Source of the DNA: a virus
Length of the DNA: 64,000 bases
IMG/VR virus record: IMGVR_UViG_3300033149_006612
Coordinates: 16,183-80,182 of that record
Direction: 5' to 3' (one strand)
Under the pieces are notes generated by a model. The model searched no databases. It had not been told where the DNA came from and saw nothing but the letters and a program-made list of their open reading frames with translations. The position numbers were made by a program, and so were the translations under genes. Shown here piece after piece: positions 5,462-31,901 of this stretch (within the stretch, counting starts at the first letter, position 1; each line of letters opens with the position of its first letter).

Positions 5462-5923
5462 CTAAGGCCCCACCACCTTGGTCGGGGTAGTGGACATCCT
5501 TTCCAGCTGTTTAACCCGCTCCCCCCCGGGCACCGGCATCGATGGAGTATTCGGTTTCACCGACCCATACGACTCACCGGCATTCACCTCGGCCACCCAA
5601 TCATTAACGTTCCTGACGAAGTCCCGTATATAGTCGACCACCTGCTCATCCTCGGTCGGCATCCGAAATTTCAACATCGGGAGATCCCATCGTCGAGAAC
5701 CGTTACCCCGTCCCGGTCTGACCTCGGCCCCGTCCTTTAACTCCTCGACCAACTTTTTAGACGGCTTAACGGAACCGGGCTCCATGACCCATACCAAGGC
5801 TACGGTGGCCCCCATCAGAGCATAATAGGTGGGAGATGTCTCCGGGACGATGGCCTTGATTATTTCGAGAACTTCCAACTCCCGCTTCATGTCGACGATT
5901 TCTGGAATGCGAGATTTATTCAT
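5462..5923 (-). CDS. Hypothetical protein
   Basis: ORF with purine-rich leader. Confidence 0.6.
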   Translation of the reverse strand: MNKSRIPEIVDMKRELEVLEIIKAIVPETSPTYYALMGATVALVWVMEPGSVKPSKKLVEELKDGAEVRPGRGNGSRRWDLPMLKFRMPTEDEQVVDYIRDFVRNVNDWVAEVNAGESYGSVKPNTPSMPVPGGERVKQLERMSTTPTKVVGP

Positions 5924-6022
5924 ATCGGCCCTACCTTCCTCAGTGACGGGACGTTCTACGCCGTCGGCGGTTCATATATGAACAGGTCCGTTTCCCAGGG
6001 CTGCCCTGCCAGTTAGACCGGG

Positions 6023-6949: not shown

Positions 6950-8848
6950 TTACGCACGCCGAGCGTAAATCCGGCTGTACCCATCGGCGTAGACTATTTT
7001 GAGTATATTTGGAATCCTGGACGTCAACGCCGAATTATGGGAGATCGCAAAGACCGTCCCCCTCCTCCTCGCCTCCCCCTCAAGTAGATCTACAAACGTA
7101 GAGATCCCGGCTTCGTCCAATGAAGCATCGATCTCATCAAAAACGGATATGTTCGAACCTCCCCACATGGTCTCAACCAGGGACTGGAATGAGAGTGCCA
7201 CACAGAGGTCAATCCGCTTTGACTGTCCACCCGAGGAGGCCAGGTAGGAACCGGCCCTCTTCGGTATGTCCACAACCACATCGATACGGTCCTTGGCGGA
7301 TTTCTGAAACTTAACCGATATCTCCCCCCCGGTCAGGATTCCGGAGAAGTATTCGAGCTTCAGATTTAGGAAATCCACCACCTGTGAATAGCAGTACTCC
7401 TTAATTCCCCTTTCCGAAAAACCCGTCATCCAGAAACGCAGGTACCACAAGAGGTTCTGAATCTCCTCGATCCTGTCATCCATCTCATCGATCCCGTCCA
7501 TCTTCGCCTTAATCTGGGTCGATACCGTCTTCCTGTCCTCCTCCAACTGCCGTTTAACGGTCCGGTTCCCCTTGATCCGGTTATCCAGTTCGGTTATCTC
7601 GGCGTTCAGCTGGGCTTGCCGCCGCTGAAGACCGGCCAGGACGTTCAACGACCCAACGTCGTCCCGGTCACACTCGGCCATCCCGGCTTCCAATTCCGCC
7701 CTCTCCGCCAGAAGTACGTCCAGTTCCTGTAACTCCTCCCTCAACCTGTCGATCTTGTACGCGATGGCCTTCCGATCGTTCTTGAGCCCCTTGATCACAT
7801 CACCCATTAACGATCTCTGCTGCTTGATGTGTTCCTCGGTAAACGGACGTTTACACTCCTTACACACCCGCCCCGGTTTAATCTTTACCAACTCCTCCTG
7901 CTTCGCTTCCAACGATCCGTCAACGGTCTCCAGCTTCGTTTCAAACCTTGAAATCTCACGCTCCAGCTCGATTTTGTTCTCCGGACCGGCTATGATTTCC
8001 TTTAACCGATTATCCAACTCCCGTTTCCGTCTGAGATTGTCGTCCCGCCGTGCGGTCTCCGTCTCGATGTCCCGGTTTACCGCGTCTAACTCCTCCCGTC
8101 TGTCCTCCCGTTCCCGTTCCAGCTTAGCCGTCGTCCTAAGCACCGATTCCTGTTCCTTCAACTTTCCGTCTATATCCTCCTGCCACGCCCGAAGACCGGC
8201 AAGCTCGGACTCCTCGTTCTCCCGCCGCCGCTTCAAATCTTCAAGTTCGGACTCCAACCCGTCCTTGTCCGCCTTAACGCGTTCCCGTGCCTTGGTAAAT
8301 CTATCCAGCCTAAGGAAGGATTCAAGGACCTTCCTCCGTTCTGCGTCCGTACATTGGGTGAACCGCTTAACGGCCCCCTGCCCGAAGATCATCGAATTGA
8401 TCAGCGACTGATAGTTCAGACCGAGCAACTCCACTACCTTAGTCTCGGTCTCCTTGATGCTTTCACCGGATAGGTCCTCGGACCCCCGTTTCAGGATGAG
8501 GCCGTTCCCGTGCTCCGAATCCCTCCTATACCTGATGACCGAATAGGACCTGCCGTCGACCTCAAGATCGACCTGGACCATACAGTCGGCTTTGGTCTGC
8601 CGGTTGACCACGTCGTCCATCTTAAACTCCGCGGAGTCCCTACCGAATACGACCTGCCGGGCGGTCATCCCGAACAGGCACCACGGGATCGCATCGGTCA
8701 GCAATGCCGATTTTCCAGAACCGTTCGAATCTGCGCTTGGGGAATCGTAATTCTTACCGACCACCAGTACCAGCCCCCGGTCGGCCAGGTCAAGTTCGGC
8801 CTCCCTGAAGCTGAAAAAATTCCTCACTGTAAGACGGGTGAACCTCAT
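6950..8848 (-). CDS. SbcC/Rad50/gp46-like SMC ATPase (recombination nuclease subunit)
   Basis: Walker A NGSGKS, Q-loop FGQG, long coiled coil with zinc hook CKEC, signature SSGGQ, Walker B VFDE, H-loop ISH. Confidence 0.93.
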   Translation of the reverse strand: MRFTRLTVRNFFSFREAELDLADRGLVLVVGKNYDSPSADSNGSGKSALLTDAIPWCLFGMTARQVVFGRDSAEFKMDDVVNRQTKADCMVQVDLEVDGRSYSVIRYRRDSEHGNGLILKRGSEDLSGESIKETETKVVELLGLNYQSLINSMIFGQGAVKRFTQCTDAERRKVLESFLRLDRFTKARERVKADKDGLESELEDLKRRRENEESELAGLRAWQEDIDGKLKEQESVLRTTAKLEREREDRREELDAVNRDIETETARRDDNLRRKRELDNRLKEIIAGPENKIELEREISRFETKLETVDGSLEAKQEELVKIKPGRVCKECKRPFTEEHIKQQRSLMGDVIKGLKNDRKAIAYKIDRLREELQELDVLLAERAELEAGMAECDRDDVGSLNVLAGLQRRQAQLNAEITELDNRIKGNRTVKRQLEEDRKTVSTQIKAKMDGIDEMDDRIEEIQNLLWYLRFWMTGFSERGIKEYCYSQVVDFLNLKLEYFSGILTGGEISVKFQKSAKDRIDVVVDIPKRAGSYLASSGGQSKRIDLCVALSFQSLVETMWGGSNISVFDEIDASLDEAGISTFVDLLEGEARRRGTVFAISHNSALTSRIPNILKIVYADGYSRIYARRA

Positions 8849-23255: not shown

Positions 23256-24029
23256 CTAGAACTCCTTCCTTATTTCGGCCATCCGACGTGAAACCGTGGC
23301 CGATGAGACGCCCAGAGCCTGGAACTCCTTCCTTATTTCGGCCATCCGACGTGAAACCGTGGCCGATGAGACGCCCAGAGCCTGGGCATAATGCTTATTG
23401 TGAATCTTTAATTCATTCAGACCCATTACCAGTTCCCCACGTTCCCTTCGGGCCTGTTTTTCCCTAAACTCGGCTTCCGCCTTCATCCGGATCTCCTCCG
23501 GTGGCTCAAGGATCAAATCCAGAAGCCGCTTAGCTTTGGGATTCAACCGTTCTCGCAGCTGCGACATCTTGCGGTTGAAATCGATCCTGTTGATCGGATC
23601 TTCCGTCGAGTTTTTACCTCTAAACTCCATCAACATCTTCGGCGGTCTGCCCGATTTAGCGGCGACCTCCTCAAGCTTTTGGATTGAATAAACCGGACTG
23701 CGTTTACACCGCTCACCCATATTCGGATTCAGCCCCTGGAGGCCTCCTTGTTTGAACTTCTTCCGGATTTCCTTCCATAACGCATTGCGGAAATAGCGGT
23801 CGACGTCGTCATATTCGATCTCTTTCCCATCCATCAGCATGGGCCTCAGTTCCACGCTACCGTCAGGACGAATCCGGGCCTTCCGTTTCCGGATGATCTC
23901 ACACCAGAGCAGCAACCCCTCCTGTCTGAGATCCTCAAACGTGGCCTCATCATCCGAGAATTGACTAGCCAGCTTATTAATGTACCGTTCCTTTGACTTC
24001 CATCCGTCGATATCCGTTTTGTGTTCCAT
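23256..24029 (-). CDS. Putative sigma-70-like factor with duplicated C-terminal HTH segment
   Basis: FEDLRQEGLL region 2-like motif; C-terminal AQALGVSSATVSRR HTH; GGAGGT RBS. Confidence 0.7.
   Translation of the reverse strand: MEHKTDIDGWKSKERYINKLASQFSDDEATFEDLRQEGLLLWCEIIRKRKARIRPDGSVELRPMLMDGKEIEYDDVDRYFRNALWKEIRKKFKQGGLQGLNPNMGERCKRSPVYSIQKLEEVAAKSGRPPKMLMEFRGKNSTEDPINRIDFNRKMSQLRERLNPKAKRLLDLILEPPEEIRMKAEAEFREKQARRERGELVMGLNELKIHNKHYAQALGVSSATVSRRMAEIRKEFQALGVSSATVSRRMAEIRKEF
23259..23384. repeat. Perfect 63-bp tandem duplication
   Basis: 23259-23321 is identical to 23322-23384; encodes QALGVSSATVSRRMAEIRKEF twice. Confidence 0.97.
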
Positions 24030-25794: not shown

Positions 25795-25824
25795 TTGACA
25801 AAACCTATCCATCTGTGGTATAAT
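25795..25824 (+). promoter_or_regulatory. Rightward consensus sigma70 early promoter
   Basis: TTGACA (25795-25800)-18 nt-TATAAT (25819-25824) with extended -10 TG. Confidence 0.88.
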
Positions 25825-25849
25825 AAAAAGTATGGAAAGGAGAAACACG

Positions 25850-25981
25850 ATGAACAAAGACCCACCGAGGACAATACAGCCCCTGTCGCAAGGCAAGCCA
25901 CAGGAATCCTACGCTCCCACGATGGAGACAGGCAGGGGGTCACGAAGAGGTCGAGCCAGTACGGGTCTGCCAGGACGCTAG
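25850..25981 (+). CDS. Short leader ORF (43 aa) or gene remnant
   Basis: AAAGGAGAAACACGATGAACAA start context identical to the gene at 26947; product is not recognisable. Confidence 0.35.
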   Translation: MNKDPPRTIQPLSQGKPQESYAPTMETGRGSRRGRASTGLPGR

Positions 25982-26116: not shown

Positions 26117-26183
26117 GACCTGTCCGGACATACCGATTGAGTCCGCTGATGAGGATGGGGGTAGGGTCCCATCGAAACAGGTC
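26117..26183 (+). ncRNA. Hammerhead ribozyme, type III (HHR1)
   Basis: Stem III GACCTGT/ACAGGTC, GTC site (cut after 26124), stem I CGGAC/GTCCG, core CTGATGA 26146-26152, stem II GATGGG/CCCATC, GAAA 26174-26177; loop I TACC complementary to loop II GGTA. Confidence 0.9.
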
Positions 26184-26195
26184 TTGGAGGTTACC

Positions 26196-26483
26196 ATGGC
26201 AGAGCGTTATACTCCTCAAGTTGGAGATCATTTAGTCCCCGACGGCTGGGGGTTTGGTGAGAATCTGGAAGCCGATGACGGGTATAGTGACGGCAGTTTC
26301 CCCGGATGTGAATTCCGGCTTCCGGCGGGCCTTGACCGTGTATACCGGCTTGCAGTCAACGTGAAGGTCACCGGCGGTGACCACATCGTGAACTTCGGCA
26401 GGTATCGGTCCCGCTGCAGGATCGAGTTTGTCGGTGACGGTGAACCGAGCACCTTCACCGGTGGATGGATCTACCACTCCTAA
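26196..26483 (+). CDS. Small early hypothetical protein (95 aa)
   Basis: GGAGG at 26186 then ATG 26196; lies between HHR1 and HHR2. Confidence 0.75.
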   Translation: MAERYTPQVGDHLVPDGWGFGENLEADDGYSDGSFPGCEFRLPAGLDRVYRLAVNVKVTGGDHIVNFGRYRSRCRIEFVGDGEPSTFTGGWIYHS

Positions 26484-26484
26484 A

Positions 26485-26548
26485 GCCGAAACCAGCCGAA
26501 AGGCTGGTCTGCTGGAGATAACCTCCCAGCACTGATGATGGCAGGTTA
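26485..26548 (+). ncRNA. Hammerhead ribozyme, type II with pseudoknot (HHR2)
   Basis: GCC-GAAA, stem III CCAGCC/GGCTGG, GTC (cut after 26509), stem I TGCTGG/CCAGCA, CTGATGA 26532-26538, GGC closing stem II, 3' AGGTTA pairs with loop I TAACCT. Confidence 0.92.
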
Positions 26549-26568
26549 CCATCGAGGAGGTTTTTACC

Positions 26569-26841
26569 ATGGAATGCCCACTTTGCGGTTCCCGCGGTTC
26601 TCGTTTCCTTAAGCCCCATCCGAGCGTTTTCGGCGTTTACGAATGCCGAAAATGCCGAGCATTGTTCGGCGAATGCTACCTGGGAGATAGCTATTCGCTA
26701 GTGTCTCCCATGTGGTCCCGGCAGGACGTCGAGGATACCGAATGCCGGTACTTCGATTTCATCTGTGTGGGATCCGGTGGGATCACACGCAGGCATGGTT
26801 GGTTCAATCCGGCTGACGGTCGGATCGTTCAAACCGGTTGA
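26569..26841 (+). CDS. Small early zinc-finger protein
   Basis: CPLCG...CRKC; GAGGAGG RBS; lies between HHR2 and HHR3. Confidence 0.8.
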   Translation: MECPLCGSRGSRFLKPHPSVFGVYECRKCRALFGECYLGDSYSLVSPMWSRQDVEDTECRYFDFICVGSGGITRRHGWFNPADGRIVQTG

Positions 26842-26845
26842 GTAA

Positions 26846-26911
26846 GCCGAAACCGGCTAGAGATAGCCGGTCTAGCCGGGATGACCTCCGGCTACTGATG
26901 ATGGTAGGTCA
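26846..26911 (+). ncRNA. Hammerhead ribozyme, type II with pseudoknot (HHR3)
   Basis: GCC-GAAA, stem III CCGGCTA/TAGCCGG, GTC (cut after 26872), stem I TAGCCGG/CCGGCTA, CTGATGA 26895-26901, GGT, 3' AGGTCA pairs with loop I TGACCT. Confidence 0.92.
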
Positions 26912-26946
26912 CTCTAACGTTAAAAGAAAATAAAAGGAGAAACACG

Positions 26947-27354
26947 ATGAACAACGAGGTAATCGAAATCCAAGTCGCTTGCACTGACAACATCACGGCT
27001 AAATGGGCCGTGATTAAACTGATGGTTAAGACGTCGGTCATCGACGTCTTAAGCAGATGCGATAACGGCGTCTACAAACCGCAGGTCAAGACCGGAGAGG
27101 AGATGTTCGCAATCCGTCCGGTAGTGGATGCGGTCGACATCGAGATGATCTGCCCCACCGGGGTGGTCAAGTGGGTCGCCAAACCCGGGGAGGAGATGTT
27201 CGCATTGGTCCGCCCGATAGTGGAGGCGATCGACATCGAGCTGGGTTGCCCCACCGGGCAGATCAAGTGGGTCGTCAAAACCGACGGGATCGTCTCCATC
27301 CACGCCGTCGATGACCAGGGAATGGAGACGGTATCAATCATCAACCTGTGCTGA
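26947..27354 (+). CDS. Small early protein with internal tandem repeat
   Basis: AAGGAG RBS; two copies of KxGEEMFA..RP.V.A.DIE..CPTG..KWV. Confidence 0.8.
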   Translation: MNNEVIEIQVACTDNITAKWAVIKLMVKTSVIDVLSRCDNGVYKPQVKTGEEMFAIRPVVDAVDIEMICPTGVVKWVAKPGEEMFALVRPIVEAIDIELGCPTGQIKWVVKTDGIVSIHAVDDQGMETVSIINLC

Positions 27355-27356
27355 CA

Positions 27357-27425
27357 GCCGAAATGCCGGGGGACCTCCCCCGGCATCTGCCGGAGATGAC
27401 CTCCCGGCACTGATGAGGCAGGTCA
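27357..27425 (+). ncRNA. Hammerhead ribozyme, type II with pseudoknot (HHR4)
   Basis: GCC-GAAA, stem III TGCCGGGGG/CCCCCGGCA, ATC (cut after 27387), stem I TGCCGG/CCGGCA, CTGATGA 27410-27416, GGC, 3' AGGTCA pairs with loop I TGACCT. Confidence 0.93.
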
Positions 27426-27457
27426 AATAATTCACCAAATCAGAAAGGAGAAAACAG

Positions 27458-27652
27458 ATGAAGGAAACGGGCATAGACGGAAACTGCCCCAGCTGGCCCG
27501 GTGCCAGCGAAGTTTACTCCAAGGCATACCGCTATATGGAGAAACATGGAGCAGACCACGCATTAATCAAAGCCCTGGAAAAGGGTAATGAAGAGGAGGT
27601 CAAAGCAAATATGCTCAGGATAAACACCGAATCGCTCCTGAGCATGGAATGA
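27458..27652 (+). CDS. Small early hypothetical protein
   Basis: AAAGGAG RBS; follows HHR4. Confidence 0.7.
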   Translation: MKETGIDGNCPSWPGASEVYSKAYRYMEKHGADHALIKALEKGNEEEVKANMLRINTESLLSME

Positions 27653-27742: not shown

Positions 27743-28861
27743 ATGGACACCAGACAGAAAATTAAAAAGATATACACCACCCTTAACGATCAACTGGTAG
27801 AGAGGTCCGAAGTCCTACAAGGGTCGATAATAGCGATCCTTGCTCGGAAACACCTCTTCATGATCGGGCCTCCGGGTACGGCCAAATCACTCGGAATCGA
27901 GAAGTTCTGCGAGTCAATCTCCGGCATGACATACTTCGAGGAACTGATGACCCAGCAGACAAAGCCCGAGGACCTCTTCGGTCCGATCAAAGTCTCAGCG
28001 TATAGAGAAGATCGATATGAGCGGAACGTCGAAGGATTCCTACCGACTGCCGACATCGCCTTTCTCGACGAGATCTTTAAGGCCGGTGGACCAAATCTTA
28101 ATCCGCTGCTGAGGCTGACGGATGAAACGCGCAAATTCCGGAACGGCAAACCCCAGATGGAGCGATGTCCGCTGAACAGCCTGTTTGCCGCCAGTAATGA
28201 ATTCCCCGAGAACGCAGCCGAACTCAGCGCTCTTTGGGACCGGCTGCTACTCCGATATGTGGTGGACGACATCGTCGATGATTCCAACTTCGAAGCCATG
28301 ATGGCCTTGGAGGAAATCAAAATCGAGCACACCATCACCAAGGAGGAGCTCCGGCAAGCCCAGGAGGAGGTCGACCGGGTAAAGATCACACCAGAAATCA
28401 TCCATGTGCTGACCGAACTCCGCTCGAAGCTCCGGAAGGAAGGATATATATTTTCTCCCCGGAGATGGCGGGAGTCAAAGCAGGTCCTCAGGGCTCATGC
28501 CTGGTTCCACGGCCGGGACGAGGTCTCCGAGGATGATCTTGAAATCCTGGCCGCGGTCCTCTGGGACAGGCCCGAGCAACGGCGCGAGGTACTTCGCATC
28601 TTGATGTCCACCACCAATCCCGACACTGCCACAGCCCTAGCGTTGTTCGACGACATCCAAGAGATCATTGATGACATCGAAAAGCAGCCGGACGAATCGG
28701 CCAAACTCGCTGCCAGTCAGGAGGCCGTAGTCAAACTCCGGGATATGATCCCGCTGTTTGACAACTTCCGGCCCCACGCTAAGATTTTTGAATTAAAAAA
28801 TCAGGCCATAGAGATGCAACGTGCCGTCGTCCGGAGGTATTTCGGAATTAACATTAACTGA
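27743..28861 (+). CDS. MoxR/RavA-family AAA+ ATPase
   Basis: GPPGTAKS, EDLFGP, GFLPTADIAFLDEIFKA, ASNEFP, ALWDRL, SPRRW. Confidence 0.9.
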   Translation: MDTRQKIKKIYTTLNDQLVERSEVLQGSIIAILARKHLFMIGPPGTAKSLGIEKFCESISGMTYFEELMTQQTKPEDLFGPIKVSAYREDRYERNVEGFLPTADIAFLDEIFKAGGPNLNPLLRLTDETRKFRNGKPQMERCPLNSLFAASNEFPENAAELSALWDRLLLRYVVDDIVDDSNFEAMMALEEIKIEHTITKEELRQAQEEVDRVKITPEIIHVLTELRSKLRKEGYIFSPRRWRESKQVLRAHAWFHGRDEVSEDDLEILAAVLWDRPEQRREVLRILMSTTNPDTATALALFDDIQEIIDDIEKQPDESAKLAASQEAVVKLRDMIPLFDNFRPHAKIFELKNQAIEMQRAVVRRYFGININ

Positions 28862-28871
28862 GGAGGCAGTC

Positions 28872-30308
28872 ATGTTCGTAACCAATGTTGACGCATTCGA
28901 CCGGAGGACATTCGAGGACATCGCTCCCCGGTCCAGCAAGGTGGAGGACATCCGGTCCTCCGCCGAATATTCCGAATACGGAGACCTGCTAGAGGATCTC
29001 ATGGTTGACGGCTTCGGCTCCCTGTACAAATACGCCCCCCGGGTTCTGGAAGACGTCCCACCGGAACGGATTCTCTCCAAGCGGGTCATTGAACAGTGGC
29101 AACAGTTACCGGAATGGCAGCAGTTCCGGAAGTTCACCGTAGGTGACGAGATCGTCAGTATGGGAGCCGTAGACGCCGTGTACCGGGTGTTCAAGGAGAT
29201 GCCGGTCGAGGTTAAACGACGCCAACGGGAACTCCAGGACTTCTCGGATCGGCTGACCGAAATGTTGAATTCCGACGATACTGATTTTGGTAGTGACGAA
29301 TTCAAGGATGCGGTAACCGACATGGTCGAAGCCGGTAATAGGGTGGATCAAGCCCTGGATGCCGACGAGGACCGGATACGAAAATTGTGCCGGGTGGCAC
29401 TTCGAGAGGCCGCGGATGAGGCAGAGATCGAGGGAAAGGCAATGCTGGCACTCGGTTTTGATGACTCTACCGGGGAACTTAACGGTTCCCACAAGGACGA
29501 TCGAATCAAAATAGCCAGCATGCTGCAGAACAATCCCAAGCTTCGAGAAATCGTTAAACTCGCCGGTCGATTCTGCTATGTGGCGGATAAAAAGCAGCGG
29601 GAGAAATCCGAATACGCCCGGTCCCAGGTATCCGGTATTGAATTCGGAGACGACCTGCAGCGGGTAACCCCCTCCGATATGGCCCTCCTGTCCGATAAAG
29701 ACTTAGAGGAATTGTTCTGGCTGAAGTACATCGAATCAGGACTCCAGCTCTACAAGATCACCGGCACCGAGACCCTAGGTAAAGGACCCGTCGTGATAAT
29801 GGTCGACTGTTCCGGTAGTATGGCGGGTCAGAAGGATATATGGGCAAAAGCCATGGCCCTAGCGGGTTATTCCATAGCCCGGAAGCAAAACCGGGACTTC
29901 GCCTTTCTGTTATACAACACCGAGGTCAGGAAACAGATCTACCTTAAATCCGGCACCGGCAAACGGAACATGACCGGTCTGGCCGAGATTCTATCATCCG
30001 GCGTCGGCGGTGGTACCGATTTCGAAGTTCCCATCACATACGCCATGCGGGAGGTCCTAACCAGGTCCGAATTTACCAAGGCCGACATCATCTTCATCTC
30101 GGACGGTTACTACATGATCGGTGACGACTGGTTCCGGGATTATCAAACCCGAAAGGACGGTATGGAATTCGCGTTCTGGGGAATTCAAATCGGCCCCAGG
30201 CTGAGAGGTATGGACGCGTTGGATAGACTGAGCGACGACGTGGTTTACCTGGACGGTGACATCCTGGCCAATCAGGACCGGGCTTTTGACATGGCCTTTA
30301 CCATCTAA
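28872..30308 (+). CDS. VWA-domain protein (ViaA-like partner of the AAA+ ATPase)
   Basis: KGPVVIMVDCSGSM MIDAS motif, GGGTDF, ADIIFISDG; GAGGAGG RBS before 28872. Confidence 0.9.
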   Translation: MFVTNVDAFDRRTFEDIAPRSSKVEDIRSSAEYSEYGDLLEDLMVDGFGSLYKYAPRVLEDVPPERILSKRVIEQWQQLPEWQQFRKFTVGDEIVSMGAVDAVYRVFKEMPVEVKRRQRELQDFSDRLTEMLNSDDTDFGSDEFKDAVTDMVEAGNRVDQALDADEDRIRKLCRVALREAADEAEIEGKAMLALGFDDSTGELNGSHKDDRIKIASMLQNNPKLREIVKLAGRFCYVADKKQREKSEYARSQVSGIEFGDDLQRVTPSDMALLSDKDLEELFWLKYIESGLQLYKITGTETLGKGPVVIMVDCSGSMAGQKDIWAKAMALAGYSIARKQNRDFAFLLYNTEVRKQIYLKSGTGKRNMTGLAEILSSGVGGGTDFEVPITYAMREVLTRSEFTKADIIFISDGYYMIGDDWFRDYQTRKDGMEFAFWGIQIGPRLRGMDALDRLSDDVVYLDGDILANQDRAFDMAFTI

Positions 30309-30400
30309 CCCGTCAATGAAAACAAATCTCAACCATGGAATCCGTTAATGAAGCCGGGGAAGGATGTCCCCGGCAAAGCCCATCATCGAGGAGAAAGACG

Positions 30401-31633
30401 ATGAAACAAAAAGAGGAAATCAAGCGAACAATCGCAGAACAGGCGAACGGCCTCCCCATACTGGGCCACCTGGTCTGGTGGACCGTCCACAAGGTGGAAA
30501 TCCCCAGACTGGACTTGGAAGACCTGCTCGCGAAGACCGTCGGCATTCAATACATGCCCACCGAGCACCGGAAGGCTAAAGCTCTCAAGAGGGGCTTAGA
30601 ATCGATGAGGGAAGCTGGCCTGCTGGACCTCATCCGTGATGACAAGGTCATGACGGCTTATCAGATCACCGATAAGATGATCGACGTCAAGGAGGTCAAG
30701 GCCGACTACCGCCGCAAGGCCGCGGTCCAATTCGTGAAGCGGGGAGACGGGGTCCCGATGGGTGGGGAAATCCGGGTATACGGTGATGTGGACAGGAAGG
30801 AGGTCCAAGAACGGTTGGACCACTACCTGCAGGTGTACACCGCCGATGACATCCGAATGATCCTCAAGGCATATGTCAGAGACAATGCCGGGATCAACCT
30901 GAATGAGAACGGCCTCCTCTACTTCGTCCCCGAGCCTGAGGTAGTTGACGTCATGAAGGTTTTCCTGGAAGCCGTCGGTGGTGACCTTGGGCTCTCCCCG
31001 GTTACCGACACCGAATACGTCAAGACCAACATGGTCACTCGGATTCGTGATGAACTGGAGGCCGAAATCGAATCGGCCGCCGAGGAGGTCAAGAGGATGA
31101 GCAGCAGCAAGTTCACCAGAGGACTGACCTTCAAAGCCCGGTTAAAGGAATTCGCCGCTCTCAAGAACAGATGTGAGACGTACAGCGAGCTACTGAAGTT
31201 GGATGCCGAGACCATGATTCAGAAGGTGTCCGAGCTCCAGGAATCGGTAGAGGATTCCCTAATGGGAATCCACGTGGATTACCCCCAGATGAAGGAGTTC
31301 CCCTATGGCACCCGGGTCAGATACACCGGCGACGCCCCTAAACTGCTCATCAACCTTAACGGCAGCACTACCGGAACGGTAATCGGGTATCTCAATTCCA
31401 AGACCGGGAAACAATACGTCAAAGTTCGGTTCGATACTAAAGATATCAAGGTCATCCGGCCGATTGCACCGGGCAACCTGGAGATCACCGAACGCGCCGT
31501 GGAAACCGATCTGACGGAGATGGATGAGGATCAATTGCTGGCCAGGTTCGAAGTCTCCCCCGGCTGGTACCAGATCCCCGGTCACACCAAAAAAGTCCGG
31601 AAGGCGGAAGCCGTTCAATTACTGAAAGCGTAA
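30401..31633 (+). CDS. Hypothetical protein (possibly DUF6744-like)
   Basis: LGHLVWW, G.LYFVP and coiled-coil C-terminal half; family recalled from memory only. Confidence 0.55.
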   Translation: MKQKEEIKRTIAEQANGLPILGHLVWWTVHKVEIPRLDLEDLLAKTVGIQYMPTEHRKAKALKRGLESMREAGLLDLIRDDKVMTAYQITDKMIDVKEVKADYRRKAAVQFVKRGDGVPMGGEIRVYGDVDRKEVQERLDHYLQVYTADDIRMILKAYVRDNAGINLNENGLLYFVPEPEVVDVMKVFLEAVGGDLGLSPVTDTEYVKTNMVTRIRDELEAEIESAAEEVKRMSSSKFTRGLTFKARLKEFAALKNRCETYSELLKLDAETMIQKVSELQESVEDSLMGIHVDYPQMKEFPYGTRVRYTGDAPKLLINLNGSTTGTVIGYLNSKTGKQYVKVRFDTKDIKVIRPIAPGNLEITERAVETDLTEMDEDQLLARFEVSPGWYQIPGHTKKVRKAEAVQLLKA

Positions 31634-31873: not shown

Positions 31874-31901
31874 AAGAGGGGGGCGTCATGGCCCCCCTCT
31901 T
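31874..31901. terminator. Intrinsic terminator between the convergent early and late operons
   Basis: AAGAGGGGGGC-GTCATG-GCCCCCCTCTT; T-rich tail on the minus strand. Confidence 0.8.

Follow-up and report, generated by a model that had tools for sequence, protein, structure and literature searches.

[quoted passage not shown] 2011, PLoS Comput Biol, PMC3088659). Triple arrays from three bacteria cleaved during in vitro transcription in that study, and the authors proposed that such arrays process transcripts into single-gene mRNAs; the genes flanked in this way vary, and the authors also considered circular or spliced products (PMC3088659). A 2019 review treats the role of bacterial and phage hammerheads, of which these genomes contain hundreds, as unresolved, with the processing of polycistronic transcripts suggested and unproven (PMC6765202). 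In viroid-like RNAs and retrozymes, hammerheads release circular RNAs (de la Pena et al. 2020, PMC7761336).

The array described here belongs to an uncultured 80-kb phage whose genome is complete. The window, the whole stretch of 64,000 nucleotides that was analysed, comprises bases 16183–80182 of IMGVR_UViG_3300033149_006612, a virus record that is complete at 80,182 bp and bears direct terminal repeats. Like the arrays of Perreault et al., it places several same-strand hammerheads within ~1.3 kb between the genes of one phage operon, mixes hammerhead types, and is associated with genes whose identities are not constant between genomes. It differs from them in its arrangement, with one type III and three type II ribozymes before a MoxR–vWA–DUF6744 module, in coming from a new genome, and in consisting of predicted copies. 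The layout has been known in phages since 2011, and the present array adds an example rather than a new principle. It is, however, a compact case, in which a single promoter precedes four ribozymes and four small genes; it suits testing whether such punctuation insulates or stabilizes phage messages, and it could help settle the question of circular products raised in 2011. The four ribozymes are as follows.

26117–26183, plus strand: probable type III hammerhead, the fourth ribozyme of the array, predicted cut after C26124 (RF00008, 37 bits, local E 4e-7; sequence reading; minimum-energy fold)
26484–26550, plus strand: type II hammerhead 1, predicted cut after 26509, triplet GUC (RF02276, 43.1 bits; our own subfamily model R1, 86 bits; descriptor scan)
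26845–26913, plus strand: type II hammerhead 2, predicted cut after 26872, triplet GUC (RF02276, 46.5 bits; R1, 76 bits)
27356–27427, plus strand: type II hammerhead 3, predicted cut after 27387, triplet AUC (RF02276, 44.0 bits; R1, 76 bits)

All three type II copies exceed the gathering score of RF02276 (Hammerhead_II; 37), and they share with that family the consensus core, the open stem II, and the pseudoknot between loop I and the 3' tail. Copies 1 and 2 are set apart from it by one additional U, which lies between CUGAUGA and stem II and is also seen in 17 of the 23 distinct sequences of the wider subfamily described below. [quoted passage not shown] The cut sites predicted at 26509, 26872, and 27387 agree between a manual count from the sequence and an independent, purpose-written descriptor scan that recovered all of its positive controls. 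An earlier sequence-only reading had delimited two units between type II cuts, at 26510–26872 and 26873–27387, and these bounds are borne out by the positions at which the triplets end. The anatomy that it gave the units is also correct: the 5' end consists of stem I, CUGAUGA, an optional U, GGC or GGU, and a tail AGGU(C/U)A that pairs with loop I, and the 3' end of GCC, GAAA, the stem III hairpin, and NUC. As that reading held, the pseudoknot lies wholly 3' of the cut, and it covaries (UGACC/GGUCA, UAACC/GGUUA, and CGACC/GGUCG). At gathering thresholds, Rfam returned no other match of any kind in the window and no further Hammerhead_II match in the whole 80,182-bp record, and a laxer Rfam scan over 15–40 kb added nothing. 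A weak R1 match at 5923–5993 on the minus strand was rejected, as it has CUGAGGA where the core belongs.

The type III ribozyme lies outside the coordinates covered by the sequence-only reading, which omitted it. Its 37 bits on RF00008 fall under the gathering score of 48.5, a shortfall that its large loops would explain; the match runs from end to end, with an E value of 4e-7 that applies to the local stretch only, and every core position is intact. Stem III comprises 7 bp (GACCUGU/ACAGGUC) and stem I pairs CGGAC with GUCCG, while CUGAUGA at 26146 is followed by a stem II hairpin and then GAAA. The minimum-energy fold of this copy is a three-way junction.

To place the type II copies among other viruses, we used a structured 22-base pattern over IMG/VR, which identified 38 stretches of the same type II subtype and superseded a 14-base ribozyme pattern whose matches were mostly due to chance. 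The resulting subfamily alignment comprises 23 distinct sequences, the three window copies included. Within it, 94.6% of cells are standard pairs and 12 pairs have changed on both sides; none of 500 shuffles reached as high a value, and slid controls collapse. Two-sided changes affect six of the seven pairs in stem III, four of the seven in stem I, and two of the six in the pseudoknot, where 94.9% of cells are paired. Stem II reads GCC/GGC or GCC/GGU in all 23, its sole change being from G-C to G-U. Most members of the subfamily are the lone copy in their phage. By this record of compensatory change, the ribozymes are well maintained.

The ribozymes are embedded in an operon with the following features.

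25795–25824, plus strand: predicted promoter of sigma-70 consensus (TTGACA, 18 nt, TG-TATAAT), heading the operon (12/12 hexamer matches, extended -10)
26196–26483, plus strand: ORF1, 95 aa, ATG after GGAGG (ORF call; no known family)
26569–26841, plus strand: ORF2, 90 aa, zinc-ribbon protein of a conserved family (homologues, AlphaFold model)
26947–27354, plus strand: ORF3, 135 aa, orphan with two internal repeats of ~36 aa (1.84 billion representatives searched)
27458–27652, plus strand: ORF4, 64 aa, opening the long downstream RNA (ORF call; no family match)
27743–31633, plus strand: module of a MoxR AAA ATPase, a vWA protein, and a DUF6744 protein (PF20030, PF07728, PF13519, PF20529)
31874–31901, strand unassigned: strong G+C-rich hairpin with an 11-bp stem and 8 G-C pairs (called as a terminator by the scan on the minus strand only)

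The promoter is the sole strong one that the promoter scan places on the plus strand upstream of the array. From it, the transcript runs through a leader of ~300 nt, the type III ribozyme, ORF1, type II ribozyme 1, ORF2, type II ribozyme 2, ORF3, type II ribozyme 3, and ORF4 into the genes of the MoxR ATPase, the vWA protein, and the DUF6744 protein; the four predicted ribozymes thus part ORF1, ORF2, ORF3, and ORF4 within 1.3 kb. Scanning the interior of the array revealed no convincing terminator, and the next strong hairpin, at 31874–31901, could terminate the operon on the plus strand. The spacing is tight throughout: each of the three type II ribozymes begins 0–3 nt past the preceding stop codon and finishes a little ahead of the next gene's ribosome-binding site, the trailer from that stop to the cut measures 26–33 nt, and the leader from the cut to the next start codon measures 59–74 nt. 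Every downstream gene is preceded by a Shine-Dalgarno sequence of its own. A longer ORF1 call, from 26115, begins within the type III ribozyme.

ORF1, ORF3, and ORF4 have no match in Pfam or PHROG. ORF2 has 15 homologues at 47–57% identity with invariant CYLGDSY and RRHGW motifs (RRHGWFN in the window) and, judged by sequence comparison, is a real gene. In PHROGs and Pfam it gives only a weak zinc-ribbon hint; its AlphaFold model, predicted with a mean pLDDT of 94, has no significant match among PDB folds and resembles only unnamed or zinc-binding look-alikes in the Atlas. A search of 1.84 billion representatives with ORF3 returned itself plus weak repeat-on-repeat matches only, and cultured phages contain no match. 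Weak ORF3 matches to proteins of 700 aa were rejected as a repeat-on-repeat coincidence with RING/B-box and LysM proteins. The MoxR–vWA–DUF6744 module lies past the last cut and is conserved in distant phage relatives, with relatives of the MoxR protein in cultured phages at <=37% identity only.

Cleavage at the three type II sites would release two units of unrelated sequence.

26510–26872 (363 nt), plus strand: unit A, RNA between two type II cuts, carrying ORF2 (sequence, fold, descriptor scan)
26873–27387 (515 nt), plus strand: unit B, RNA between two type II cuts, carrying ORF3 (sequence, fold, descriptor scan)

In their minimum-energy folds, the linear units feature a stem I hairpin at the 5' end and a stem III hairpin at the 3' end, and no long-range helix unites the two ends.

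Taking the ribozymes, with their positions and covariation, together with the layout of the operon, we infer that the array probably cleaves itself in vivo, dividing one transcript into separate, hairpin-capped linear mRNAs and thereby insulating the small variable genes and the conserved module. A single promoter (25795) of host-type consensus would drive an early-type transcript that carries one type III and then three type II hammerheads, and the ribozymes would cut themselves during transcription. The products would be separate linear mRNAs for ORF1, ORF2, and ORF3, and a long mRNA for ORF4, MoxR, vWA, and DUF6744. Every piece would begin with a 5'-OH on a stem I hairpin and a leader of fixed length, and would end shortly past its stop codon in a stem III hairpin and a 2',3'-cyclic phosphate. 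The likely effect would be to uncouple the stability and translation of the small variable accessory genes from one another and from the conserved module downstream. Linear processing is favored because one promoter with 12/12 matches, no internal terminators, and a Shine-Dalgarno sequence for each downstream gene occur together, because the cores are intact and stem I, stem III, and the pseudoknot have all undergone compensatory change, and because the linear units fold with hairpins at both termini. RiboJ, engineered from a type III satellite ribozyme to which a hairpin was added, is a synthetic insulator of similar design. In both cases a hammerhead before the ribosome-binding site strips the upstream RNA context and leaves a fixed, hairpin-capped leader; by analogy, the natural array may insulate its genes as RiboJ does.

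The chemistry of the cut ends bears on what cleavage would do to the messages. A 5'-OH end is not protective in every host; in some it sets off decay, as with glmS and RNase J1 in Bacillus, and the effect could therefore be either stabilizing or destabilizing. It is nevertheless improbable that cleavage serves mainly to destabilize or down-tune the messages, by 5'-OH-dependent decay or by condition-dependent rates. Cleavage-triggered decay has a precedent in the glmS ribozyme, and regulation of phage hammerheads is a possibility raised by Perreault et al. (PMC3088659), but neither a ligand-binding extension nor an alternative fold was seen here, the terminal hairpins look protective, and the combination of consensus cores with a stabilizing pseudoknot implies that cleavage would be fast and constitutive. 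The same ends could instead be joined. RtcB ligates 5'-OH to 2',3'-cyclic phosphate, so the chemistry of a unit's ends suits it, and either host RtcB or the reverse hammerhead reaction would yield exonuclease-resistant circular messages for ORF2 and ORF3, which the ribosome-binding site within each unit could make translatable. We consider such circles very unlikely to be the products of the array. The sequence-only reading had argued that joining the ends of a unit rebuilds a complete hybrid hammerhead, and in silico this is so: hybrids that combine the 5' half of one ribozyme with the 3' half of the copy before it (2 with 1, and 3 with 2) fold equivalently to the native ribozymes. As evidence of selection for circles, however, the geometry has no discriminating power, because stem II is invariant across the subfamily, single-copy ribozymes included, and because the first unit of the same operon (26125–26509, from the type III to the type II cut) forms no hammerhead when its ends are joined. 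On this comparison, the ends are compatible because of type II topology and an invariant 3-bp stem II, and not because compatibility was selected. The common denominator of such arrays is cleavage rather than reconstitution, since ribozyme types are mixed here and since in the phage locus L136 a related hammerhead array is followed by a twister ribozyme. Within each unit, moreover, the ends are held in separate terminal hairpins and tied only by the 3-bp helix across 363–515 nt, a contact that would be a poor substrate for self-ligation or RtcB. The complete 80-kb phage genome has no match to RtcB or to the RNA ligase family PF09414; a search with PF09511 (T4 Rnl1-type ligase) was uninformative, as its control matched in no genome. 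None of the three possible circles contains an endless frame, and with stops in every frame a circle therefore adds no coding capacity over the linear RNA. Neither of the two back-joined junctions was found as an exact pattern in viral contigs, which is a weak test in a collection of mostly DNA, and Perreault et al., who sought circular or spliced products of such arrays, detected none (PMC3088659). The resemblance to viroid-like RNAs and retrozymes is that of a unit bounded by hammerhead cuts, with a 5'-OH and a cyclic phosphate that a tRNA-ligase or RtcB-type enzyme could join. Those elements, however, repeat a single non-coding sequence in tandem, use type I or III ribozymes, and pass through a cycle of replication or retrotransposition, whereas here the units are unrelated and protein-coding, lie in a DNA phage, and show neither a unit repeat nor a reverse transcriptase. 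The absence of a reverse transcriptase, claimed earlier for the window, extends to the complete 80-kb genome, which has no RVT_1 match. Nothing in the present analysis speaks positively for circular mRNAs, which could arise, with little likelihood, only via a host ligase. The combined proposal, in which host RtcB or, slowly, the hybrid hammerhead closes the units of ORF2 and ORF3 into circles while the ribozyme edges double as joints for exchange, is more improbable still; if true, it would mean translatable, exonuclease-resistant circular mRNAs from a DNA phage.

At the level of DNA, the ribozymes might act as conserved joints for the gain, loss, and swap of small genes between phages, which we regard as possible though rather unlikely. 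In its strong form, in which an ORF travels with its ribozyme, this proposal of the sequence-only reading fails. Pattern scans found ORF2 relatives at 72 further loci, and 71 of these lack a hammerhead; ORF2 therefore moves between phages without a ribozyme. Model R1 detects no hammerhead at these loci save a weak match in one, L220, which is also the only locus positive in the descriptor scan, and fourteen large loci of the ORF2 family searched against all Rfam families contain no ribozyme. The exception in L220 is a type II hammerhead of another subtype, directly after the stop codon. No other gene is common to the window and any of the 72 loci. Phages that carry MoxR–vWA–DUF6744 relatives (31–48% identity) have no hammerhead within 8 kb and no relatives of ORF1–4. 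A MoxR pattern scan of viral contigs yielded a single near-identical sibling record (99.3%), which is identical to the window throughout 26510–27387 and hence across both units. The exact runs common to the three type II copies, at 10–11 nt only, are short for homologous recombination. Mosaic joints in phages coincide with gene boundaries in any case, and with a ribozyme that starts at the stop codon such a boundary is unspecific. On the side of exchange, ORF2 is promiscuous and occurs in many unrelated contexts, and the remaining support comes from other phages. A weaker form of the proposal finds partial support in other phage families with this ribozyme, where the ribozyme edge is a recurrent exchange boundary and the number of units varies between relatives.

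Among phages of ~20–40 kb with a single ribozyme copy, 122 pairwise alignments, between pairs that are not phylogenetically independent, start between -25 and +24 of the ribozyme start. In the same group, the slot between a conserved promoter and leader and the ribozyme is occupied by one of three unrelated ORFs, each of which ends in a TAG that overlaps the ribozyme, and homology resumes at the first bases of the ribozyme. Two of these phages, L129 and L069, carry two slot ORFs in tandem; in L129, which was aligned, they are parted by a truncated ribozyme remnant, its first ~15 bases, to which a second copy of the leader is fused, an arrangement that favors exchange at this joint. In Mu-like phages, conservation sets in at the first base of the last ribozyme and takes in the transposase, and the region upstream differs. 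The number of upstream ribozyme-bounded units in these phages also varies, with one in L124 and L128, two in L136, and three in L147, again as the gain and loss of cassettes would produce. These boundary data fit equally a 5'-leader element with a hot spot of turnover upstream and a ribozyme that serves as a homology arm. Across these other families, the type II hammerhead stays with the conserved gene downstream while the gene upstream is swapped, with the boundary at the first bases of the ribozyme, as is expected of a 5'-leader element under linear processing.

The array is headed by a type III hammerhead, which lies upstream of the ribozyme-bounded units at 26510-27387:

26117-26183, plus strand, cut after 26124: type III hammerhead, first of the array (Rfam, 37 bits)

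The 37-bit score was obtained when this stretch was searched alone, and the motif is not reported by Rfam at gathering level. The promoter and the type III cut are separated by a leader of ~300 nt, possibly a non-coding RNA. One 22-nt block (AAAGGAGAAACACGATGAACAA), comprising a ribosome-binding site, the ATG and the first two codons, occurs in two identical copies: at 25836-25857 ahead of a 43-aa ORF in the leader, and at 26933-26954 ahead of ORF3.

Both ribozyme-bounded units, 26510-26872 carrying ORF2 and 26873-27387 carrying ORF3, show no difference between the window and its near-identical sibling record L149 (IMGVR_UViG_3300033148_009348; 99.3% identity). The two sequences differ around the ORF4 start: over 27437-27514, 2 bp are deleted and 9 bp inserted in L149, which also has five clustered substitutions there.

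More distant loci offer a possible trace of unit movement. In two phages of ~20-40 kb with a single ribozyme copy, L129 and L069, the ribozyme is preceded by a tandem pair of ORFs, with the site ~250 nt upstream of the hammerhead. In L129, the locus covered by the alignment, a truncated ribozyme remnant (TAGCCGAAACGGTCA) sits between these two unrelated small ORFs, joined to another copy of the operon leader. This remnant-leader fusion resembles a scar left by the insertion of a unit, the joint falling within the ribozyme.

Outside the window, the sole hammerhead to follow an ORF2 relative was found in locus L220 (917-991), positioned straight after the stop codon and ahead of a ribosome-binding site. 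It is a type II hammerhead with a long stem III and a GAUC/GAUC stem II, and the pseudoknot is absent.

Other structured RNAs occur in further loci. In the Mu-like phages L136 and L128, which possess the type II hammerhead subtype of the window, a twister-P1 ribozyme and RAGATH-28 RNAs lie downstream on the same strand, at the following sites:

L136 8151-8211, minus strand: twister-P1 or RAGATH-28 RNA
L136 2686-2772, minus strand: twister-P1 or RAGATH-28 RNA
L128 4358-4441, minus strand: twister-P1 or RAGATH-28 RNA

An ORF2 relative on an unrelated viral contig (L178) has a HEARO RNA (8333-8553; 90.9 bits) 3 kb away.

Elsewhere in the window, a 257-aa HTH protein encoded on the minus strand has at its C-terminus (23256-23390) 21 residues (ALGVSSATVSRRMAEIRKEF and one linker residue) that are perfectly duplicated in tandem, which corresponds to a 63-bp direct repeat at the 3' end of the gene. 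Across the whole window the CTGATGA motif occurs 18 times against 8.9 expected, a count reached in 0 of 100 shuffles; the plus strand holds 16 of them, of which only four are hammerhead-associated.
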